The notes under the pieces are model-generated. The model was not told the origin of the DNA. It saw only the letters and a list, made by a program, of their open reading frames with translations, and searched no databases. From NCBI GenBank assembly GCA_030649345.1, contig JAUSKK010000029.1, positions 5,718 to 37,717 on the forward strand: a DNA stretch of 32,000 nt. Reading direction: 5' to 3'. Made by a program: the position numbers and the translations under genes. This DNA is from Candidatus Iainarchaeum sp. (GTDB lineage Archaea; Iainarchaeota; Iainarchaeia; Iainarchaeales; 0-14-0-20-34-12). Shown here one piece after another: positions 692 to 32,000 of the stretch (positions are counted from its first letter, which is position 1; each line of letters begins with the position of its first letter).

Positions 692-759
692 GGCAATGAT
701 GATGTAAGTCGCGACCGATCCTTTCATCAGGAAGTGACGATTGAGTCCAAATCTGAGCC
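692..759 (+). ncRNA. C/D box sRNA (2'-O-methylation guide RNA)
   Basis: C box ATGATGA 696-702; 12-nt guide TGTAAGTCGCGA 703-714; D' CCGA 715-718; C' GTGACGA 734-740; 12-nt guide TTGAGTCCAAAT 741-752; D box CTGA 753-756. GGC (692-694) pairs with GCC (757-759) as a terminal stem. The exact 12-nt box spacing is the archaeal hallmark. Confidence 0.6.
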
Positions 760-894
760 TTCTATTTTCGTTGTATCGAGCATAGCGCAATTAAAATCAA
801 CAGATTTTAATGCACATTAAAACCAATGGTTTTAATCGCGAAGATACGACATCGTACCGCCGGCGATCTCCGGCGAATGGGTCCAAATCTGAGC
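745..894 (+). repeat. Hairpin-core mini-insertion, copy A (possible non-autonomous mobile element), with flanking direct repeat
   Basis: GTCCAAATCTGAGC at 745-758 recurs perfectly at 881-894 (19/24 identity if extended 5'). The 122-nt insert contains the palindromic core 788-839 and a GC hairpin CGCCGG-cgatct-CCGGCG (859-876) abutting the right repeat. Confidence 0.6.
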
Positions 895-896
895 AT

Positions 897-1952
897 TTAT
901 ATTAAATCCAAATTTTTACAAATCAAAAAAGGCTTACCAAAGAACACATGTACTTTCTGGGTTCCATGCAAATTACTTTCAATTCGATTTTTCAGTTCAG
1001 CATATTTTTCTTCCGGAATTTTTCCACGCAAAACAATCTTTTGAGCTTGCAATTCTTGAAGTTTTAAAATTAATTCGGCTTCAGTTTGGGTCATGCCTAC
1101 AACTTGGAAACGATTTTTAAAAAACACATTTTTCAATAACTGATTGGATGTCAAAAAATTGGGTTGAAAATAAAAAGTTTCAGGCAATTGTTTCAAGAGT
1201 TCAGAATACAATCCAGCACGGTCAATCCCAGCATGCAGTTCATACAAATAAGTTTGCAAAGATTGAGGTTTTAGAGTGATTGAAATTTTTTCCAAAGAAA
1301 TTAGTTTTTGATTTTCAGGAACCAAAACAAGCGAACATTCTGCTTGTTTAAATTTTCCAAAATATAAAGTCAAACAATTTAATTCATGCTCACGGTTTCC
1401 GCAATTAGATGAAATGTATTCTTTTTCGCAGTCCAACAAAATTTCTTCTGATTTAAATTCGCGGGAAACTTCAATTGCAAAATCAGAAATTTTTTGGGCT
1501 TGAATCCATTCAATCAAATCCAAAGTATTGGGCACAGTTTGATCTAAAGCTTTTACGCGCAAACCATTCACTCTCCGCGAGGGATCAGAAAACACTGCAG
1601 AAACTTTAAGTTTTTGTAAATCCAATTCTTCAAAGTCAGCAGAAATAAATTCAATATTTTTTCGGCCGTACACTTCCGCATTTTGTTCAGCGCATTTCAA
1701 AACTTTTTCATCTACATCTACTGCAATTACTTTTTTGCAAAACTGAGACAAAGCAATACTATCCGAACCAATTCCGCAACCTAAATCAATAATAGTATCC
1801 CCAGCCAAGCGTTGGGCTCGATACAAAGCAATTGCTTCCGGAGTGCTTTGCTGTAAACTCTCTGAGCTTGGAAAAAACATTTCTTTCGCACGCGAAAATT
1901 TTCCTTTGGCTTTATAGCGTAGATTTTTTAATTCAAATTTAGATAATTCCAT
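897..1952 (-). CDS. class I SAM-dependent methyltransferase (probable RNA methyltransferase)
   Basis: IIDLGCGIGSDS SAM motif I, VIAVDVDE motif II, and an SDPSRR motif. Start moved to the ATG at 1952 (MELSKFELK) because the 32 upstream codons of the tracked ORF translate a tRNA gene. Confidence 0.75.
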   Translation of the reverse strand: MELSKFELKNLRYKAKGKFSRAKEMFFPSSESLQQSTPEAIALYRAQRLAGDTIIDLGCGIGSDSIALSQFCKKVIAVDVDEKVLKCAEQNAEVYGRKNIEFISADFEELDLQKLKVSAVFSDPSRRVNGLRVKALDQTVPNTLDLIEWIQAQKISDFAIEVSREFKSEEILLDCEKEYISSNCGNREHELNCLTLYFGKFKQAECSLVLVPENQKLISLEKISITLKPQSLQTYLYELHAGIDRAGLYSELLKQLPETFYFQPNFLTSNQLLKNVFFKNRFQVVGMTQTEAELILKLQELQAQKIVLRGKIPEEKYAELKNRIESNLHGTQKVHVFFGKPFLICKNLDLI

Positions 1953-2003
1953 AAACAAACCAAAAACAGTTTTCAGATGAACCTTTAAAAATTGATAAAA
2001 AAG

Positions 2004-2153
2004 CGCTCTCTGCGGGAATCGGACCCGCGCCGCAACCGAACTACACAAACTTTGTCAACGATTTCTTTCTTTTTCGTCAATGTTTTTCTTTCTTTGGAAG
2101 AAAGAAAAAGGTTGTGTGACAGGGTCGCATCCTAACCACTAGACTAAGAGAGC
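2004..2153 (-). tRNA. tRNA-Asp (anticodon GUC) with a 78-nt intron at the canonical 37/38 position
   Basis: Minus strand reads GCTCTCT-TA-GTCT-AGTGGTTA-GGAT-G-CGACC-CTGTCA / intron / C-GGTTG-CGGC-GCGGG-TCCGATT-CCCGC-AGAGAGC-G. 7-bp acceptor stem; anticodon GTC (plus-strand gac at 2118-2120). Intron 2039-2116 has bulge-helix-bulge-compatible pairing (CUGU with GUAG, 3-nt bulges at both junctions). CCA is not encoded. Confidence 0.85.
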
Positions 2154-2828: not shown

Positions 2829-3542
2829 TTAGTTGGATTCATTGGGCGAAGGAATGCTTTTTTTTGCAAAAAATAAAACAATTCCTAAAATGGTTGGAAT
2901 CAATGCCAAAATTATGGAATTGATCAAGAATTTATTTAATAAAATGGATAAAAATTGAGAAAGAGATGCTAAAGATTCAGAATTTGGAAATAAATTATTT
3001 CCAGAAAAAGTTAAAAGAACATAAGCTAAAGCAGAAGAAATGAGCATGGAAATTCCTGCACGCCAAAAAGTTTTCTGCAGTGTTTCAATTTTGTCTTTCA
3101 ATGAACTGGATAATAAAAGTAAAATAAATAAAATAACAATTCCAATAATAGCTAAAAATGGAAGCAACGAATTAAGTAAAACAATCCAAGAACGTGCTTC
3201 CTGCAATGTTTCCGGTTTAGCTACTTGTTCTAAAGAAAGGTTCACCGGAGTATTCGGCAAAGAAAAAGTTGGAATGACATTGGACGAACCTTTAATGTAA
3301 TGAATTAAATCTGAAATGAATTGCTTGAACGATTGTGTGAATTCTTGCTCAGAAACTACACTGGAAAGCTGAGGAACTGAAGCATAAGCTTCTTTGGAAA
3401 CTTGGCTGGAGTCTAAAGCAGAAACTACAAAAACTGGGTCTAAAAAGCTGGTTTGTGCACTATGAATCAAAACAAAGGCAGTGAAGGTCAAAGCAAATAA
3501 AGAAATAATTAAGCCTAAAAAAAAGTTTTTCACAAACGACAT
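2829..3542 (-). CDS. multi-pass membrane protein of unknown function
   Basis: 237-aa ORF with an N-terminal TM helix and several C-terminal hydrophobic helices (e.g. LPFLAIIGIVILFILLLL, ILALIPTILGIVLFF). No recognisable motif. Confidence 0.6.
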   Translation of the reverse strand: MSFVKNFFLGLIISLFALTFTAFVLIHSAQTSFLDPVFVVSALDSSQVSKEAYASVPQLSSVVSEQEFTQSFKQFISDLIHYIKGSSNVIPTFSLPNTPVNLSLEQVAKPETLQEARSWIVLLNSLLPFLAIIGIVILFILLLLSSSLKDKIETLQKTFWRAGISMLISSALAYVLLTFSGNNLFPNSESLASLSQFLSILLNKFLINSIILALIPTILGIVLFFAKKSIPSPNESN

Positions 3543-18596: not shown

Positions 18597-21077
18597 ATGA
18601 CGCATAACCAAAAATTCTTAATTAGTTTAGCTATTTTAGTAGTTTTGTTTTCTTTGACTGCTTTGGCTCAAGATCAACCACCTGTAGAAGGAGGAGATAC
18701 ACCACCAACAGATCAAGGACCACCGCCAACAGATCAACCACCAATTGAGGATCATCCACTGGAAGGCGGAGAACAACCACCTGCAGATCAACAAAGACCA
18801 CCTGAAGGACAGAATCCTGAAGGAGACCCTAATTACAGACCACCAGAAGGACAAGGGCCTTATCCAGGACAAGATGGACAACAACCTCCATTTGATCAAG
18901 GAAGACAACCTGAAGGACAAAATTTTCAAAGACCAACTACAGGCCCAGGTAACTGTCAAGGACAAGAACAATGCCAATTATATTGTGGAGTACACCCAGA
19001 GGAATGCCAACAATGGGCTGGCCAACAAGGAGTTCAAAGACAAGGCCCAATGAATGGAGGCCAAGGCTATGGATCTGAAAGAAGATCCGGCGGAATTGGT
19101 GGACCTCAATGTGGAACACCCGAAGAATGTAGAGGTTTAGCTCAAGAATTTGGTGTTGCAAATAGTATTGGAGTACGAACAGGACCTAGCGGATGCACCA
19201 GTGAAGAAGAATGTAAAAAAATATTTGATGAAAACCCACAAGAAGTTAGGCAATGGGCTCAACAAAATGGAATGATTGAACACAAGGGACAATTTATTGA
19301 AGCACGCGCCGGACCCGGCGGATGTTCAAGTCCAGAAGAATGTATGACTTATTGTAGAGAAAATCCAGAATCCTGTGATCAATTTGCTGGAAGAAGAGGA
19401 CAAGGATTTGAACAAGCATTTAATAAAATTGAACAAAGAGATCAACGAAAAGAAATGCAACAAGAGCGCAGAAAAGAAATGCGATTTGAAGGAATTCCAC
19501 GCGAAATAATTGAAGCTGGAGCAGAAACAGAATTTGTTCAAATGATGGCAGCCATGGCTAAATTCAGAACCCAGCGATTGCTAACTGAATTGGATAAAAT
19601 GGAAGAACGCATTTCATTGGCTGGAACAGAATTAGGAATCCAAATCGATGGAAGCAAATTTTCAGAAATGAAAACAAAAATTGAAACTGCATTAAATGAT
19701 TTAGGAAATGTAACCAATGCAGAAGAAGCCAATGCAAAAATGAAAGCTTTCTTTGAAATCATGGAAGGACCCAATGGAGTTCAAGGAGTATTTGAAAACT
19801 TTGGACAACAAATGCAAGAAAAAGTACAAGTATTGTTTGATGAAAAATTCAAACGAATGCAAACATTGCAAGAACAAATGAAAAACAAAGAACAAGAATG
19901 TAGAACTGCTGGAGACCAAATGAGACAACAACAAGAACAAAATATGCAGCAGCAAAGACAACAACAAGATGAACAGTTTAGAACTCAGGATGAAGAAAGA
20001 AGAAGACAATACGAAGAACAAATGAGAAATCAACAAGGACAATACCCTCAAGGCGGAGATCCAAATTATAGACCACCAGAAGGACAAGGACCTTACCCAG
20101 GCGATGGTGGACAGTACCCTCAAGGAGGAAGTTATCCTGAAGGAAGCATGCCACCAGAAGGCGGAGATTATCAGCCACCTCCAGAACAACCACCAGCCAG
20201 CAATGCAACTGCTCAACCAATTGTAATACAATTGCAAGAATTTCCAGGACCTCAAGGACCTGGCCCCAATGATTTCGGCGGAGGCTTTCCAGACGGACCC
20301 ATGAACGGCGGTCCTTATGACAGCGGACAAGGATTTGGCGGACCTCAAGGACCCGGCGGATTTGGAGATGGAGAAATGCCAGCAGCTTGTCAAGAAATGC
20401 AAACACTTGGAACTGAAATGCAAGCTATTGGAGAAGAAATGAAAGCTTTAGGAGAAAAAGTACAAGGCGTATTTGGAAAACCTGAAGACCATGAGCAAGA
20501 CTTTGAAGAAGAGCCTTTGCCTCCTGAATTAATTGAACAGCAAGCGCAATTGTTCATCAAAGTATTTGATTTCAAATTCAATGGAATCAAACAAAAACGA
20601 GATGAAATTGCAGGCCAAGGATTCGATGTAAAAGAATTCGATGAATTAATTGCATGGATTATTTCCAGAAAAGAAGAAGGACTCAGAATTATTCGTTCTG
20701 GAGATGAAGAAAAAATGGATGAATTCTTCAATAGCATGGGAGATTCTCAATTTGACTGGGAAGATAGAATCCGAGATTCTATTGCACGACAACAATTGGA
20801 AAAACAAATTTCCAAAGTTGAAGAATTTTTACCCAAAGCCCAAGAAGCCATTAATGCAGGAAAAGAACGAGGTTTAGATACCAGTGACTTGGAAGAAATT
20901 TACGGGGAATTGAAAGGATTGGTTGAAAATGCACGTGCACAATTAAGCCAAGGAAAAGAAATTTCTCTGCAAGATTTCAGACTACAATTACGAGAAGTGT
21001 ATCTGAATTTCCGAGAAGAATGGGTTAGCTTACGAGAAGAAGCTGCAAGAACAGGATTAATTGTACTGGCAAGGTGA
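18597..21077 (+). CDS. secreted Pro/Gln/Gly-rich protein with four G-C-x-(S/T)-x-E-E-C modules and long coiled coils
   Basis: Signal peptide ends in ALA. Low-complexity PPxDQ/PEGQ tracts. Modules GNCQGQEQCQLYC..., GPQCGTPEEC..., GPSGCTSEEEC..., GPGGCSSPEECMTYC... Heptad-rich Q/E/R/M central and C-terminal parts. Confidence 0.75.
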   Translation: MTHNQKFLISLAILVVLFSLTALAQDQPPVEGGDTPPTDQGPPPTDQPPIEDHPLEGGEQPPADQQRPPEGQNPEGDPNYRPPEGQGPYPGQDGQQPPFDQGRQPEGQNFQRPTTGPGNCQGQEQCQLYCGVHPEECQQWAGQQGVQRQGPMNGGQGYGSERRSGGIGGPQCGTPEECRGLAQEFGVANSIGVRTGPSGCTSEEECKKIFDENPQEVRQWAQQNGMIEHKGQFIEARAGPGGCSSPEECMTYCRENPESCDQFAGRRGQGFEQAFNKIEQRDQRKEMQQERRKEMRFEGIPREIIEAGAETEFVQMMAAMAKFRTQRLLTELDKMEERISLAGTELGIQIDGSKFSEMKTKIETALNDLGNVTNAEEANAKMKAFFEIMEGPNGVQGVFENFGQQMQEKVQVLFDEKFKRMQTLQEQMKNKEQECRTAGDQMRQQQEQNMQQQRQQQDEQFRTQDEERRRQYEEQMRNQQGQYPQGGDPNYRPPEGQGPYPGDGGQYPQGGSYPEGSMPPEGGDYQPPPEQPPASNATAQPIVIQLQEFPGPQGPGPNDFGGGFPDGPMNGGPYDSGQGFGGPQGPGGFGDGEMPAACQEMQTLGTEMQAIGEEMKALGEKVQGVFGKPEDHEQDFEEEPLPPELIEQQAQLFIKVFDFKFNGIKQKRDEIAGQGFDVKEFDELIAWIISRKEEGLRIIRSGDEEKMDEFFNSMGDSQFDWEDRIRDSIARQQLEKQISKVEEFLPKAQEAINAGKERGLDTSDLEEIYGELKGLVENARAQLSQGKEISLQDFRLQLREVYLNFREEWVSLREEAARTGLIVLAR

Positions 21078-22404: not shown

Positions 22405-22426
22405 AAATAGTCTCTTCAACCTAAAA

Positions 22427-22512
22427 CTATTTAAAATCGCTTGATTTGCGATTTTAAAAACTTCAAAATTGAATGCAATTTTGAATCTATTTAAAATCCA
22501 GTGGATTTTAAA
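22427..22512. promoter_or_regulatory. array of three AT-rich perfect palindromes in the mscS / rpoH divergent intergenic region
   Basis: TTTAAAATCGC (22430-40) pairs with GCGATTTTAAA (22448-58). CAAAATTG (22464-71) pairs with CAATTTTG (22476-83). TTTAAAATCCA (22490-22500) pairs with TGGATTTTAAA (22502-12). The 12-nt direct repeat CTATTTAAAATC occurs at 22427 and 22487. Confidence 0.45.
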
Positions 22513-22725
22513 AATTTTAAAACTAAAAGTTTACAGTTTGTTTAAAAATGCCAAAAAACATATTTATTGGAGGTATTTGTCCGAAAACAGTGGTGCTGAA
22601 ACTGAGTATTCGCACAGTCTAAGTAAACCTAAGTTTAAGTCAAGCACACGGGTTGTTTTAAATTTCTTTCTATTATTAGTATATTAGTTCGAATTGGTAA
22701 GCTTGTTTTTTCCGAGGAATTTTAA

Positions 22726-22959
22726 GTGGCTATAAAAATCGATACTCATAATCTTGTTCCAAAGCATGTTATAATGCCTAAGGAAACACTTTCTGAGCTT
22801 TTATCTAAACTGCAAGTGGATAGCACTGAGCAATTACCGATTATTTTACGAAACGATCCATCCATTAAACGATTAAAGCCAGAAAAAGGCGATATTATTA
22901 AAATCAGCCGAAAAAGCCTGACTGCTGGAAGTTATACTTATTATAGGGTTGTGCGATGA
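22726..22959 (+). CDS. rpoH: DNA-directed RNA polymerase subunit H (Rpo5)
   Basis: HNLVPKHVIMPKETLSELL...LP.I...DP......GDIIKI.R.S...G.Y.YYR.V. GTG start with GAGG Shine-Dalgarno. ATGA overlap with rpoB''. Confidence 0.9.
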   Translation: MAIKIDTHNLVPKHVIMPKETLSELLSKLQVDSTEQLPIILRNDPSIKRLKPEKGDIIKISRKSLTAGSYTYYRVVR

Positions 22960-24422
22960 CTGATAAATGGCCTTTATTGGATTCCTATTTCAGGACCAAA
23001 AGCTTTGTAGACCAAGAAATTGCTAGTTTTGACCAATTTGTAGAAGAAAAAATGCCTGAAATTTTGGAAGAAAACAAAGAAATTGCCCCAAAAATTGAAG
23101 AAGTTCGAATTGAATTAAGCGACATTGAAGTATTAAAACCTAGAATTATTGAAGTCGATGGTTCGCCTAGAAATGATTTTTATCCAGTAGAAGCAAGATT
23201 GCGAAACAGAACCTATTCTGGTCCTTTGTATATTACTATGAAATTGTACAGAAGAGATGTAGAACAAGATGTACGCCGAACGTATATCGGGGAATTACCC
23301 ATTATGACCAAATCTAAGTTATGCTGGTTAAATGGAAAAACCGAAGATGAATTAATTGGCTTAGGCGAAGACCCAATGGACTTTGGCGGATATTTCATTA
23401 TTAATGGAGCAGAAAAAGCATTAATGACTCAAGAAGTTTTATCCAGTGACCGAGTTCTAATTTCCAAAACAGGCAAAGATGATGTACGTGCTGAAGTGAT
23501 TAGTACTCGCGGTGCCTTCAAAGGAAAAGTTAGTGTCAACAGAAAAAACAATGGTTCTTTGAGTGTAAGCTTTCCAGCCAGTCCAAAAAAATTACGTTTA
23601 TTTGTTTTAATGAAAGCTTTGGGTTTGGATACTAAAGAAAAAATAATGAATGCTTTTACTCCAGGAAAAGAAATTGAAAACGATATTTTAGTAAATTTAG
23701 AAAGCTTGGATGTAGAAAGTGTAGAAGATGCTTTAGATCGAATTGGAAAATATGTTGCACCCGGACAAGTTATTGATTATAGATTAAGAAGAGCGCAAGA
23801 AATTTTAGATGGATTCTTATTACCCCACATTGGTCAAACCAAAGAAGACAGACTAGCTAAAGCGTATTATTTGGGAATGATGGCCAGCAAAGCAGTTGAA
23901 CGATACCATGGCTTACGTGAAGAAGATGACAAAGATCATTATGCCAACAAACGTTTAGAATTAAGTGGAAAATTAATGGAACACTTATTTAGGTATGCTT
24001 TCAAATATTTAATTAAAGACTTAAAATTCCAAATTGACAGAACTATTACCCGAAGAAGAAAATTAAACATTAGCACTATTGTTCGACCGGATGCCATTAC
24101 TGAAAGAATTCGGTTTGCTATGAGTACAGGAAACTGGATTGGACGAGCTTCCGGAGTTAGTAAATTTATGGATCGAGTCAATTACTTGAGTCCTTTAACC
24201 GATATGCGAAAAATTAAAAGTTCATTAAACAAAAACAGAGAATTATACGAAGCCAGAGATGTTCATGGAACTCACTGGGGACGAGTTGGAGCAATTGAAA
24301 CACCCGACGGCCCAAATTGTGGTTTAGTAAAAAATTTAGCCATTTTAGCTCGAGTAACTACAGATTCCAAAATTTTACCAGTTGAAGAATTATTAAAATC
24401 TAGAGGAGTAAAACTAGAATAA
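22956..24422 (+). CDS. rpoB2: DNA-directed RNA polymerase subunit B'' (Rpo2N)
   Basis: N-terminal half of RNAP subunit B: FGGYFIINGAEKAL, HYANKRLELSG, THWGRVGAIETPDGPNCGLVKNLA. Confidence 0.95.
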   Translation: MTDKWPLLDSYFRTKSFVDQEIASFDQFVEEKMPEILEENKEIAPKIEEVRIELSDIEVLKPRIIEVDGSPRNDFYPVEARLRNRTYSGPLYITMKLYRRDVEQDVRRTYIGELPIMTKSKLCWLNGKTEDELIGLGEDPMDFGGYFIINGAEKALMTQEVLSSDRVLISKTGKDDVRAEVISTRGAFKGKVSVNRKNNGSLSVSFPASPKKLRLFVLMKALGLDTKEKIMNAFTPGKEIENDILVNLESLDVESVEDALDRIGKYVAPGQVIDYRLRRAQEILDGFLLPHIGQTKEDRLAKAYYLGMMASKAVERYHGLREEDDKDHYANKRLELSGKLMEHLFRYAFKYLIKDLKFQIDRTITRRRKLNISTIVRPDAITERIRFAMSTGNWIGRASGVSKFMDRVNYLSPLTDMRKIKSSLNKNRELYEARDVHGTHWGRVGAIETPDGPNCGLVKNLAILARVTTDSKILPVEELLKSRGVKLE

Positions 24423-24513
24423 GGAGAGGGTCAGGATTACCCTAAAACTGGGGAGAACCTTGGTTCTCCGCGGTTTGGAATTATTAAAATCTAGAGGAGT
24501 CAAATTAGAGTAA
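24387..24513 (+). repeat. 36-nt direct repeat of the rpoB'' 3' end bracketing a 55-nt GC-rich double-hairpin insert (copy C)
   Basis: 24387-24422 versus 24478-24513 is 33/36 identical. Insert 24423-24477 carries hairpins AGGGT-7nt-ACCCT (24427-43) and GGAGAACC-TT-GGTTCTCC (24452-69). Confidence 0.7.
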
Positions 24514-30624: not shown

Positions 30625-31029
30625 ATGCTAAAATTAACAAAAGATGAATTGCAGTACATGAATGCCTTTCAAGCCTTTACAGGTGTGATGGCACGCGATT
30701 GTGTTATACTAGACGACACAATTGTGTTTGTAGTCAAAGAAGAAGAAGTAGGAAAAGCGATTGGAAAAAATGGACAAAACGTAAAAAGTTTAAGCAATCG
30801 AACCAAGAAAAAAATCCAAATCATACCCTACTGCAAAGAAATTGAAACATTTATTCGACAAGTTTTCAGAGAAAACAAAATCGAAACAGTCACACGACAA
30901 GACCAAGAATTGATTGTAACTACCAACAATGCAGATAAAAAGAAAATATTACAAAACAAATGGAAATTTTTAATAATAAAAGAAGTAGCAAAAAGAAATT
31001 ATGAAATTGAAAACATTAAAATAAAATGA
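30625..31029 (+). CDS. nusA: archaeal NusA-like KH-domain transcription termination/antitermination protein
   Basis: GKAIGKNGQNVKSL (KH GxxG motif), about 134 aa, in the conserved position between rpl30e and rps12. Confidence 0.8.
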   Translation: MLKLTKDELQYMNAFQAFTGVMARDCVILDDTIVFVVKEEEVGKAIGKNGQNVKSLSNRTKKKIQIIPYCKEIETFIRQVFRENKIETVTRQDQELIVTTNNADKKKILQNKWKFLIIKEVAKRNYEIENIKIK

Positions 31030-31090
31030 TGAGGAAACATTGATTATGAATTCGAAATTGAAAATTTTAAAATTCCAGGAGGAATTTTAA

Positions 31091-31519
31091 ATGGCCAGAG
31101 GAGAATTTGCAGCACGACAATTAGAAAGTGTGCGACAAAAATGGCGATGGAAAGACCCCTACTATAAATCCAGAGCATTGCGGCATAACGTAAAATACGA
31201 TTTATTGGAAGGATCCCCTCAAGCACGAGGCATTGTCTTAGAAAAACGCGGAGTTACAGCACGACAGCCCAATTCAGGTATTCGAAAATGTGTACGCGTT
31301 CAATTAACCAAAAACGGAAGACAATTAACTGCATTTGCGCCTAAAGATGGAGCCATTAAATTTATTGAAGAACACGACGAAGTCATTGTAGAAGGATTGG
31401 GTGGACGAAAGAAAGGATCTCCTGGAGATTTATGGGGAGTGAAATACAAAGTCATTAAAGTCAACAACCAATCCTTGCAAAGTCTTCGAACTGGAAAGAT
31501 AGAAAAGGTTAAGAGGTAA
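31091..31519 (+). CDS. rps12: ribosomal protein uS12
   Basis: [25 protein letters not shown] and [23 protein letters not shown] Shine-Dalgarno upstream. Confidence 0.95.
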
Positions 31520-31656
31520 TGGAAATAATTCAGTGCTGCTGAATGAAATGAAGCACAATTAAAACGAACAAGTTTTAATGTGCATTAAACCAAAGGTTTA
31601 ATCGCAGCACAACACACCAACCAGGTTATGGTTGAAAAGGTAAAGAGGTAATGGAA
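31502..31656 (+). repeat. Hairpin-core mini-insertion, copy B, bracketed by a 23-nt direct repeat spanning the rps12 stop and rps7 start
   Basis: GAAAAGGTTAAGAGGTAATGGAA (31502-24) versus GAAAAGGTAAAGAGGTAATGGAA (31634-56) is 22/23 identical. The insert has the core 31556-31605, homologous to 788-839. An outer stem pairs GTGCTGC (31533-39) with GCAGCAC (31604-10). Hairpin CAACC-7nt-GGTTG abuts the right repeat. Confidence 0.65.
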
Positions 31657-32000
31657 TTGAATAAAACAGAAAACGTACAAACACCTGCAGAAACCACAAC
31701 CAGTGTGGAAAAAGTCACTGAATCCGTAGTGACTGAAACCAAAACTGTTGTCAAGCCAACAAAAAGTTTTAATGTAAAATTGTTTGACAAATGGAGTTCA
31801 GAAGGAGTTCAAATCAATGACTTAAGTTTAGTGCGCTATGTTTTATTGGACTCAAAACGAATTCCAATTACTTATGGAAAATATTCTAAAAAAGCATTCC
31901 AAAAATCTCAAATGAGTATTGTAGAACGTTTGATTAACAAAATTATGCGATCTGGTCAAGGAAAAAGAAAATTATCCGGAAAGTATATTCGCGGACGAGG
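31651..32000 (+). CDS. rps7: ribosomal protein uS7, 3' end beyond the window, with an N-terminal extension of about 45 aa
   Basis: ATG overlaps the TAA of the second rps12-end copy (TAATG) and follows a GAGGT Shine-Dalgarno. KLFDKWSSEGVQINDLSLVRYV...MSIVERLINKIMRSGQGKRKLSGKY matches archaeal S7. Absent from the ORF track only because no stop codon falls inside the window. Confidence 0.85.
   Translation, partial: MELNKTENVQTPAETTTSVEKVTESVVTETKTVVKPTKSFNVKLFDKWSSEGVQINDLSLVRYVLLDSKRIPITYGKYSKKAFQKSQMSIVERLINKIMRSGQGKRKLSGKYIRGR

Follow-up and report, generated by a model that had tools for sequence, protein, structure and literature searches.

Several described systems come close to the element reported here, a structured 109-nt insertion between the genes of the ribosomal proteins S12 (rps12) and S7 (rps7) that is flanked on both sides by a copy of the gene junction. 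The insertion is located in the terminal 32 kb of a 37.7-kb contig (JAUSKK010000029.1) of a Candidatus Diapherotrites (Iainarchaeia, DPANN) metagenome-assembled genome (MAG), and this whole 32-kb stretch is called the window in the following. Small intergenic repeats, i.e. MITEs (miniature inverted-repeat transposable elements), repetitive extragenic palindromes and bacterial interspersed mosaic elements (REP/BIME), enterobacterial repetitive intergenic consensus sequences (ERIC), repeat units of pneumococcus (RUP) and Correia-type elements, are likewise about 100 nt long, non-coding, rich in hairpins and present in more than one copy just 3' of genes, and they also sit inside transcription units, where they are tolerated in operons. 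Integrative elements with Campbell-type attachment (att) sites at the 3' ends of tRNA, tmRNA or protein-coding genes, including integrase-less derivatives of the cis-mobilizable element (CIME) type, are alike in that their direct repeats correspond to the 3' end of the target, for which the inserted side brings a substitute end that leaves the product intact, that the repeat ends at the gene end, and that the differences between the repeats are compatible with function. In the str operon of E. coli, the structured rpsL-rpsG intercistronic region is the S7 translational operator, which resembles the present locus in having about 100 structured nucleotides between the S12 and S7 genes. Homology-facilitated illegitimate recombination, which is described for naturally transformable bacteria and E. 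coli conjugation (PMC3240628), would combine a conserved-gene anchor with a foreign 3' flank and a non-homologous join; a description of this process in archaea or DPANN was not found in the literature searched.

The features of the S12-S7 locus are given below, where P1 to P4 denote paired regions of the predicted fold and R1 is a covariance model built on the double-hairpin core shared by two copies of the element (copies A and B).

31091-31519, forward strand: rps12, encoding S12 (142 aa, Pfam PF00164), which ends with EKVKR* inside junction copy 1
31502-31524, forward strand: junction copy 1, GAAAAGGTTAAGAGGTAATGGAA, 23 nt with the last five S12 codons, the TAA stop codon and the overlapping ATG GAA
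31519-31542, forward strand: mini-ORF (open reading frame) MEIIQCC*, opened by the ATG of copy 1, with its stop just 3' of the 5' strand of P1
31525-31633, forward strand: insert, i.e. element copy A, 109 nt, non-coding, recognized by folding and by R1 (82.3 bits)
31533-31539 with 31604-31610, forward strand: outer stem P1, GTGCTGC paired with GCAGCAC
31553-31583, forward strand: hairpin P2, predicted to be enclosed by P1
31584-31602, forward strand: hairpin P3, predicted to be enclosed by P1
31618-31634, forward strand: hairpin P4, CAACCA/TGGTTG, which reaches 1 nt into copy 2
31628-31651, forward strand: upstream mini-ORF (uORF) MVEKVKR*, 7 codons, which starts in the P4 loop, crosses copy 2 and at its end shares a TAATG with the S7 start
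31634-31656, forward strand: junction copy 2, GAAAAGGTAAAGAGGTAATGGAA, with a remnant of the S12 tail, GAGGT and TAATG; the S7 start codon is at 31651
31651-32000, forward strand: rps7, encoding S7, cut by the contig end, with the conserved LFDKW from 31780

The two junction copies differ at a single position, GTT in copy 1 and GTA in copy 2, which is synonymous for Val in the S12 frame, and the 23-mer has two matches in the window compared to none in 100 dinucleotide shuffles. S12 is complete at copy 1 with a C-terminus as in its relatives, and it is 100% identical to an NCBI 'Candidatus Diapherotrites' S12. The insert has no coding-like frame according to a codon-usage score of all frames, and its fold reaches z-scores against shuffles of -4.1 as RNA of the forward strand, -4.9 as RNA of the reverse strand and -5.4 as single-stranded DNA (ssDNA), none of the shuffles being as stable. 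The original prediction for this locus had claimed the 23-nt duplication with its synonymous difference, the end of rps12 in copy 1, whose ATG opens only MEIIQCC, the start of rps7 in copy 2, and a 7-bp outer stem together with a CAACC hairpin that reaches the right repeat. All of these claims were reproduced, the repeat exactly in position and content and both stems as parts of the significant fold, and its view that both genes are preserved by duplicating the junction agrees with the finding that copy 1 gives S12 its normal C-terminus and that copy 2 contains the start of S7.

The comparison set comprised the three closest S12 loci and 160 further S12 loci; about 155 related S12-S7 junctions and 645 kb of related loci were examined (L-numbers denote the fetched Logan contigs and related loci). 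The S12-S7 gaps in the three closest relatives, whose S12 is 79-83% identical, are 5, 23 and 5 nt, and the insert is absent from all of the approximately 155 related junctions and from the 645 kb of related loci, including in searches with model R1. From this we conclude that the sequence is indeed an insertion, as had been proposed. The ancestral state was most likely a tight S12-stop/S7-start junction, ...AGGTAATGGAATTGAAT..., i.e. AGG TAA TG GAA TTG AAT, and an empty site would be shorter by exactly 132 nt, which corresponds to the insert plus one junction copy. However, the junction is variable in the clade rather than strongly conserved as a TAATG overlap, which was the expectation: the spacers range from 0 to about 130 non-coding nucleotides, with oligo-T runs and TATA-like boxes in many lineages, and a TAATG overlap occurs only in L033 and L060. 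The proposed comparison with empty sites thus holds insofar as short or empty junctions exist, but the single TAATG overlap is uncommon among them. The alternative that all relatives carry the same spacer and that no other copies exist does not apply, since there are empty sites as well as a second copy, which lies at 759-877 within the window.

The S7 start in copy 2 precedes an N-terminal extension of 41-43 codons (codons 1-43, 31651-31779) that is rich in T, E, V and K. The S7 of relatives begins with M-x-K-[IL]-F-D-K-W, the equivalent of which starts at about 31772-31780 in the window, 251 nt past the S12 stop; the distance of about 110 nt by which the genes were said to be split is therefore correct for the insert, but not for the conserved S7 N-terminus, as the extension had been overlooked. 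S7 homologues accordingly match only the last 63-65% or so of the query, with one reaching 82%. In terms of codon usage, the extension scores +0.54 per codon in its own frame, compared with -0.83 and -1.24 in the other two (genes: 0.65±0.20 in frame, -0.94 off frame). In about 45 of the approximately 155 related loci, the conserved N-terminus of S7 follows the S12 stop at a distance of at least about 90 nt and at most 364 nt, and most of the gaps inspected are in-frame low-complexity extensions that start at or near the S12 stop, with the TAATG overlap in L033 and L060. Since the extension is coding-like and typical of the clade, we conclude that S7 does start in copy 2, where the NCBI annotation places the start as well (P0121, 'partial', 117 aa, named 'hypothetical protein').

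Translation of S7 would be uncoupled from S12 termination in this arrangement, and S7 would have to initiate at copy 2, or to re-initiate after the 7-codon uORF ending in TAATG, which could restore the coupling. The GAGGT motif lies 1 nt from the S7 ATG; in other genes of the window, GGTG or GGAGG precedes the start by 5-8 nt. The insert is free of runs of five or more T, so that read-through transcription is likely; a TATA-like TTTAAT is located about 50 nt upstream of the S7 ATG.

A second assembly (Logan contig L001, run SRR13727527) is identical to the window over 30692-31635, which covers the left junction and the whole insert as well as the NusA tail duplication described below, and ends at 31635, 2 nt into copy 2. 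The break at this position is a hint that strains vary, or that coverage is low, around the S7 5' region. An assembly artefact, either a strain bubble whose arms were placed one after the other or a chimeric join close to the end of the contig, would be compatible with the position of the feature 350-500 nt from the contig end, with the stop of L001 just inside copy 2 and with copy-to-copy differences that resemble single-nucleotide polymorphisms between strains. However, the longest exact run common to both junction copies is 14 nt, which makes the repeat itself too short to cause an assembly join and lies below typical assembly k-mers (presumably k=31 in the case of Logan), and the unique 109-nt insert must join the tail on both sides in real reads. 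In addition, L001 confirms copy 1 and the insert, the independent Logan contig L166 spans another tail duplication of the window, that of RpoB'', from end to end without a mismatch, and the same architecture is found in MAGs of other studies (L017, L061, L029 and L050), some of them from other assemblers. An artefact is thus barely credible, and we conclude that the S12-S7 duplication is a real feature, although the claim that it is no assembly join is covered by a second assembly for the left junction and the insert and by the MAG contig alone for the right junction.

A low-stringency self-search of the window revealed the second copy of the element, copy B, and the features that define the two copies and the site of copy B are the following.

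31551-31607, forward strand: conserved double-hairpin core (P2 and P3) of copy A, shared with copy B
692-759, forward strand: probable C/D-box small RNA (sRNA), with sub-threshold Rfam matches to sR1 (E=0.002), sR46, sR14 and sR44
738-761, forward strand: tail repeat 1 of site B, the sRNA 3' end with the guide end, D box and terminal stem
759-877, forward strand: element copy B, 119 nt, R1 84.8 bits, fold z-score -3.2
770-777 with 843-850, forward strand: predicted outer stem P1' of copy B
783-841, forward strand: predicted core of copy B
858-863 with 870-875, forward strand: predicted 3' hairpin P4' of copy B
874-897, forward strand: tail repeat 2 of site B, 21 of 24 positions identical to repeat 1, abutting the stop of the converging gene 897-2048 (reverse strand)

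Over 56 nt (784-839 in copy B), the cores of the two copies share 82% identity with compensatory changes in P2 and P3. R1 recognizes both (84.8 bits for B, 82.3 bits for A), while on the strand of the model everything else in the window scores at most 17 bits. With respect to the gene that precedes them and has its tail repeated, the two copies are oriented alike. The ends of the two copies are unrelated and lack terminal inverted repeats; in copy B, the outer stem (GUUGUAUC/GAUACGAC) and the 3' hairpin (CGCCGG/CCGGCG) keep the positions of P1 and P4 with sequences unrelated to those of copy A. It is therefore well supported that the insert is a small non-coding, hairpin-rich repeat element, of which copy A lies in the transcript region of the S12-S7 operon, and the kept P1 and P4 pairing shows that the fold, be it of RNA or of ssDNA, is of importance for the element family. 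Searches with exact patterns of the insert gave no match in GTDB representative genomes, JGI metagenomes or IMG/VR, where the genome and metagenome sets do not include the source MAG, blastn of the element against plasmids and phages found nothing credible, and Rfam 15 contained no family for the insert at gathering or permissive thresholds. An identity as a K-turn, C/D or H/ACA RNA was rejected, as no consistent boxes were seen by eye and as the conserved pairing of P3 counts against a pseudouridylation pocket. The sRNA upstream of copy B has C AUGAUGA, D' CCGA, C' GUGACGA and D CUGA boxes, 12-nt guide spacings and a terminal GGC/GCC stem.

The very low folding energy and the pairing of P1 and P4, which is kept between both copies independent of sequence, could suggest that the insert is a selected cis-acting RNA, for example an autoregulatory operator of S7 or S12, an element for mRNA processing or stability, or an internal promoter by which S7 is uncoupled from S12; the duplication would then be kept for supplying the S7 initiation region. 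Such a role would be in agreement with a site analogous to the E. coli S7 operator, a uORF whose stop overlaps the S7 start codon in TAATG and the TATA-like TTTAAT mentioned above. However, the insert is missing from all of the approximately 155 related junctions, the closest relatives included, copy B follows a C/D-box sRNA facing a converging gene, where an S7 operator would be senseless, no Rfam family matches, and inserts at the same junction in two other lineages, L017 and L061, are unrelated in sequence. We regard a selected cis-acting function as improbable. Unlike the E. coli operator, the element is lineage-specific and recently inserted and has a homologue at an unrelated locus, and we conclude that it matches no known RNA family and is probably not an S7 operator. 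The window contains no 16S rRNA. Evidence for a dedicated function was not obtained, as the insert is absent from relatives, has a homologue beside an sRNA and lacks an Rfam match.

The duplication of a gene tail around a hairpin insert is not peculiar to one special junction, since besides the second element copy at 759-877 tail duplications were found at the ends of other genes. Two further cases in the window are listed here.

24387-24422 and 24478-24513, forward strand: tail duplication of RpoB'', ELLKSRGVKLE* encoded twice, with 3 differences, all of them synonymous
31003-31022 and 31054-31073, forward strand: tail duplication of NusA, GAAATTGAAAACATTAAAAT, 20 nt, period 51, with 2 differences

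Altogether, 10 tail duplications were identified: those of the sRNA, RpoB'', NusA and S12 in the window, of S12 in L017 and L061, of S7 in L029 (36 nt) and L042 (22 nt), and of RpoA'' in L050 (36-37 nt) and L077 (21 nt). Repeats of this class measure 17-37 nt and inserts 26-119 nt. The cases in the window include 3 of its 23 protein genes, all of them in the operon of RNA polymerase and ribosomal proteins. The RpoB'' duplication (36 nt, period 91) surrounds a 55-nt GC-rich hairpin insert, and the gene carries Pfam Rpb2 domains. It encodes the split RNA polymerase subunit B'', the last 12 codons of which, including the stop, are doubled and followed by a 61-nt AT-rich spacer and then the B' gene. 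The NusA copies read EIENIKI and EIENFKI, the second lying just upstream of the S12 Shine-Dalgarno sequence.

In a systematic scan of S12 tails, significant duplications were confined to three loci, namely the window, L017 and L061 (17 nt with a period of 100 in L017 and L061), which are also the three loci with the longest non-coding S12-S7 spacers; no further duplicated S12 junction was present among 75 scannable metagenome junctions. Since the three loci belong to different sub-clades, in which the nearest relatives have short gaps, the three S12 events are independent, and L047 represents a clean empty site for the analogous insert of L061. Homology between the inserts of the window, L017 and L061 was not significant (p about 0.09-0.4), and a motif ACGAAC..GCATTAAA, which occurs in the window and L017 only, was treated as chance.

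The insert of L061 aligns over about 120 nt with its own NusA-S12 intergenic region (76% over 74 nt according to blastn). Related hairpin-rich copies are thus located before and after S12 in this locus (2367-2483 and 2900-3021), the upstream one maybe flanked by a decayed NusA-tail repeat. This similarity would fit a tandem duplication of the upstream intergenic region together with S12, after which the second S12 was largely deleted; a phase with two functional copies would also explain synonymous differences. In the window, however, the insert resembles neither the NusA-S12 spacer nor the 5' region of S7, its homologue lies 30 kb away beside an sRNA, and a repeat that ends at the stop codon before a long spacer is left unexplained, which makes such an origin very improbable. 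A tandem duplication of the junction plus the S7 5' part was rejected as well, as the insert gave a global z-score of 0.28 against 31657-31775, with one 18-nt local match (AAGTTTTAATGT).

Two properties of the repeats bear on their origin. First, the codons that differ between copy 1 and copy 2 comprise 14 synonymous and 4 non-synonymous changes (p=4e-6 versus 25%, p=1.3e-3 versus 40%), the three 36-nt tails preserve the peptide and the stop perfectly despite 3-5 nt changes (0 of 2198 ORF ends in the reversed-sequence control for peptide tails), and differences extend to the last sense codon. Second, the similarity ends 0, 0, +1, 0, +3, +2 and +5 nt past the stop codon, even where a spacer of 30-60 nt follows, and the end of the hairpin is 0-1 nt from copy 2 in 7 of the 10 inserts. 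Copy 2 has lost its stop in L017 and NusA and carries non-synonymous changes in L042 and L077, and this decay indicates that copy 2 is not under long-term selection.

The synonymous bias, the stop of copy 2 that is kept in 7 of 9 coding cases, and the order of matched codons, stop and hairpin after copy 1, which may recall T4 gene 60, could mean that both tails are decoded, by ribosome hopping or RNA processing over one period with termination at the TAATG of copy 2, so that coupling is kept. This reading is extremely doubtful in view of the decay of copy 2 in L017, NusA, L042 and L077, of purine-rich repeats that cannot form the exon-exon helix of a bulge-helix-bulge motif, which is also missing from the folds, and of the sRNA and RpoB'' cases, which have no downstream coupling to preserve. 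The periods of 91-138 nt argue against it, too, and to our knowledge exceed known bypass gaps. Programmed translational bypass as in T4 gene 60 or mitochondrial byp was rejected because S12 is complete at copy 1 with a C-terminus as in relatives, an archaeal bulge-helix-bulge intron because the folds leave both repeats unpaired and the repeats cannot pair mutually, and an origin by selection only because it fails at the sRNA and RpoB'', where no downstream gene needs copy 2. Also discarded were a variable repeat/template repeat pair of a diversity-generating retroelement (2 of 7 checked differences in the S12 case of the window, RpoB'' and L029 with a copy 2 adenine, repeats of only 17-37 nt and no adjacent reverse transcriptase) and a CRISPR-like off-target spacer integration, as insert sizes of 26-119 nt fit no spacer ruler.

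We tentatively favour inter-allelic recombination as the origin of the duplications, in which the gene end of a diverged allele together with its 3' flank became joined to the resident junction. A segment of DNA, or cDNA, carrying the S12 3' end and a downstream hairpin element would arrive from a diverged allele or lineage. On the gene side, homology would bring it into the resident chromosome by recombination, and on the other side an illegitimate join would connect the foot of its terminal hairpin with the position 18 nt before the stop codon of the resident S12. Copy 1 and the insert would then represent the tail of the incoming allele, and copy 2 the resident tail with the original S7 start. 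Such a product could persist as neither gene is damaged and as homologous recombination would delete repeats of 17-37 nt only inefficiently; the homology that conserved genes offer across lineages would favour them. Recombination is preferred over a transposase target duplication because staggered cuts made regardless of sequence would not end at stop codons, and diverged functional alleles are the simplest reading because a fresh duplicate that diverged neutrally would not accumulate mainly synonymous changes. Differences within 4 nt of the end of homology indicate, in addition, that a later allelic replacement of copy 1 alone is insufficient. Homologous recombination has been reported to shape Diapherotrites populations (PMC5905446). 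The favoured origin would agree with homology-facilitated illegitimate recombination in the allelic look of the tails and the enrichment at conserved genes, and it would be equivalent to a unit that, like integrative elements, brings along a gene end of its own as replacement; by contrast, a regular join at the base of a hairpin is not a defined feature of that process, and its donor was not found here.

Several observations weigh against the recombination of alleles. A donor, i.e. S12 followed by the element without a duplication, was not found in genome and metagenome scans or in the 645 kb of related loci. The S12 copies have one difference only and their repeat extends 5 nt past the stop, so that the S12 case alone cannot separate recombination from target-site duplication. 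Homologous copies at two unrelated loci, each with its own flanking repeat, are a classic signature of transposition, and L061 also has two related copies in one locus; such families within a genome fit intragenomic mobility better than import, the copy number of the element having been counted within the 32-kb window. Moreover, only arguments, namely a detection floor and the instability of long repeats, account for the clustering of joins 17-37 nt before stop codons, and the right junction is carried by no assembly other than that of the MAG, whose contig ends about 350 nt beyond it.

As an alternative, a MITE-like, non-autonomous element might be moved in trans, either by an enzyme whose staggered cuts are long and variable or through target-primed reverse transcription. 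In that case, the repeats of 17-24 nt would be true target-site duplications, and only insertions whose duplication covers the overlap of S12 end and S7 start would survive. Besides the two homologous copies at unrelated sites with their own local repeats and the two related copies in L061, such mobility is in line with a small, non-coding element that is structured as RNA or ssDNA, with independent gains at S12-S7 in three lineages, and with an S12 repeat that has one difference only and reaches past the stop codon. On the other hand, there are no terminal inverted repeats, the ends of copies A and B are not conserved, the repeat length varies from 17 to 37 nt, the differences in the class are mostly synonymous, the repeat ends at the stop codon even with a spacer of 30-60 nt, and a non-exhaustive scan of the ORFs in the window revealed neither a transposase nor a reverse transcriptase. 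We consider a MITE-like mobility possible, but rather unlikely.

It is conceivable, albeit with even less confidence, that Iainarchaeia move hairpin modules consisting of a gene tail (17-37 nt), a stop codon and a 3' hairpin, which are inserted by short-homology recombination. Such a module may derive from the 3' end of a processed transcript that was copied into DNA, and if this were true, a self-restoring, homology-guided insertion could colonise even overlapping coupled junctions while harming neither gene.

With regard to known classes, the element is small, non-coding and multicopy (109 and 119 nt, two copies in 32 kb) as MITEs are, but it differs from them in that terminal inverted repeats, conserved ends and a target-site duplication of fixed length are missing. 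MITEs have short fixed target-site duplications and REPs none, whereas the flanks here are 17-37 nt long, variable, bounded by the stop codon and differ mostly by synonymous changes. A likeness to REP/BIME consists in P4-type GC hairpins in 7 of the 10 inserts and a related hairpin directly after a stop codon in L048. In contrast to integrative elements, the inserts measure 26-119 nt and contain no integrase, the repeats differ at every site without a shared att core, and at least 6 targets (S12, S7, RpoB'', RpoA'', NusA and the sRNA) are beyond one site-specific recombinase. The element is therefore best classed among the small intergenic repeat elements, unusual for its recurrent gene-tail duplication, which points to inter-allelic recombination.

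In a streamlined DPANN genome, even a tight, coupled junction of ribosomal-protein genes accepts a structured insertion if the junction is duplicated, and this belongs to a wider pattern of tail duplications around hairpin inserts at conserved information-processing genes. If the recombination of alleles is indeed their origin, such scars could be natural markers of gene flow in uncultivated archaea. Furthermore, duplicated tails and mini-ORFs can mislead gene callers.

A few additional observations were made during the analysis. Low-complexity S7 extensions of about 30-120 aa rich in K, E, T, A, P and V occur in L028, L033, L038-L042, L050-L085 and L104-L163; they are widespread in one large clade of the Iainarchaeia and represent a clade feature of note for ribosome biology. 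A GC-rich palindrome (TGCGCGTGAACCG..CGGTTC) is found in L042 (3858-3883) and on the opposite strand in L048 (387-413) with 89% identity, i.e. in two different genomes, REP-like and directly after stop codons. In the window, a tRNA (2004-2153, reverse strand; Rfam 44.4 bits) with the anticodon loop GUC, where it has an intron of about 80 nt, overlaps the presumed start region of the ORF 897-2048 (reverse strand); it was not called by ARAGORN. An 826-aa ORF (18597-21077, forward strand) consists largely of internal Q/P/G-rich repeats (families D1, D2, D4, D6, D7, D16 and D18). A gene-free, very AT-rich region of 535 nt upstream of rpoB'' (22420-22955) contains GATTTTAAAAA units at 22450 and 22504 and weak matches to the core model (17 bits). 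Upstream of S12, perfect or near-perfect direct repeats of 18-28 nt with periods of 48-53 nt are present in L082 (2326-2391), L149 (1330-1396) and L090 (1382-1470), which may be tandem promoter, operator or hairpin units.

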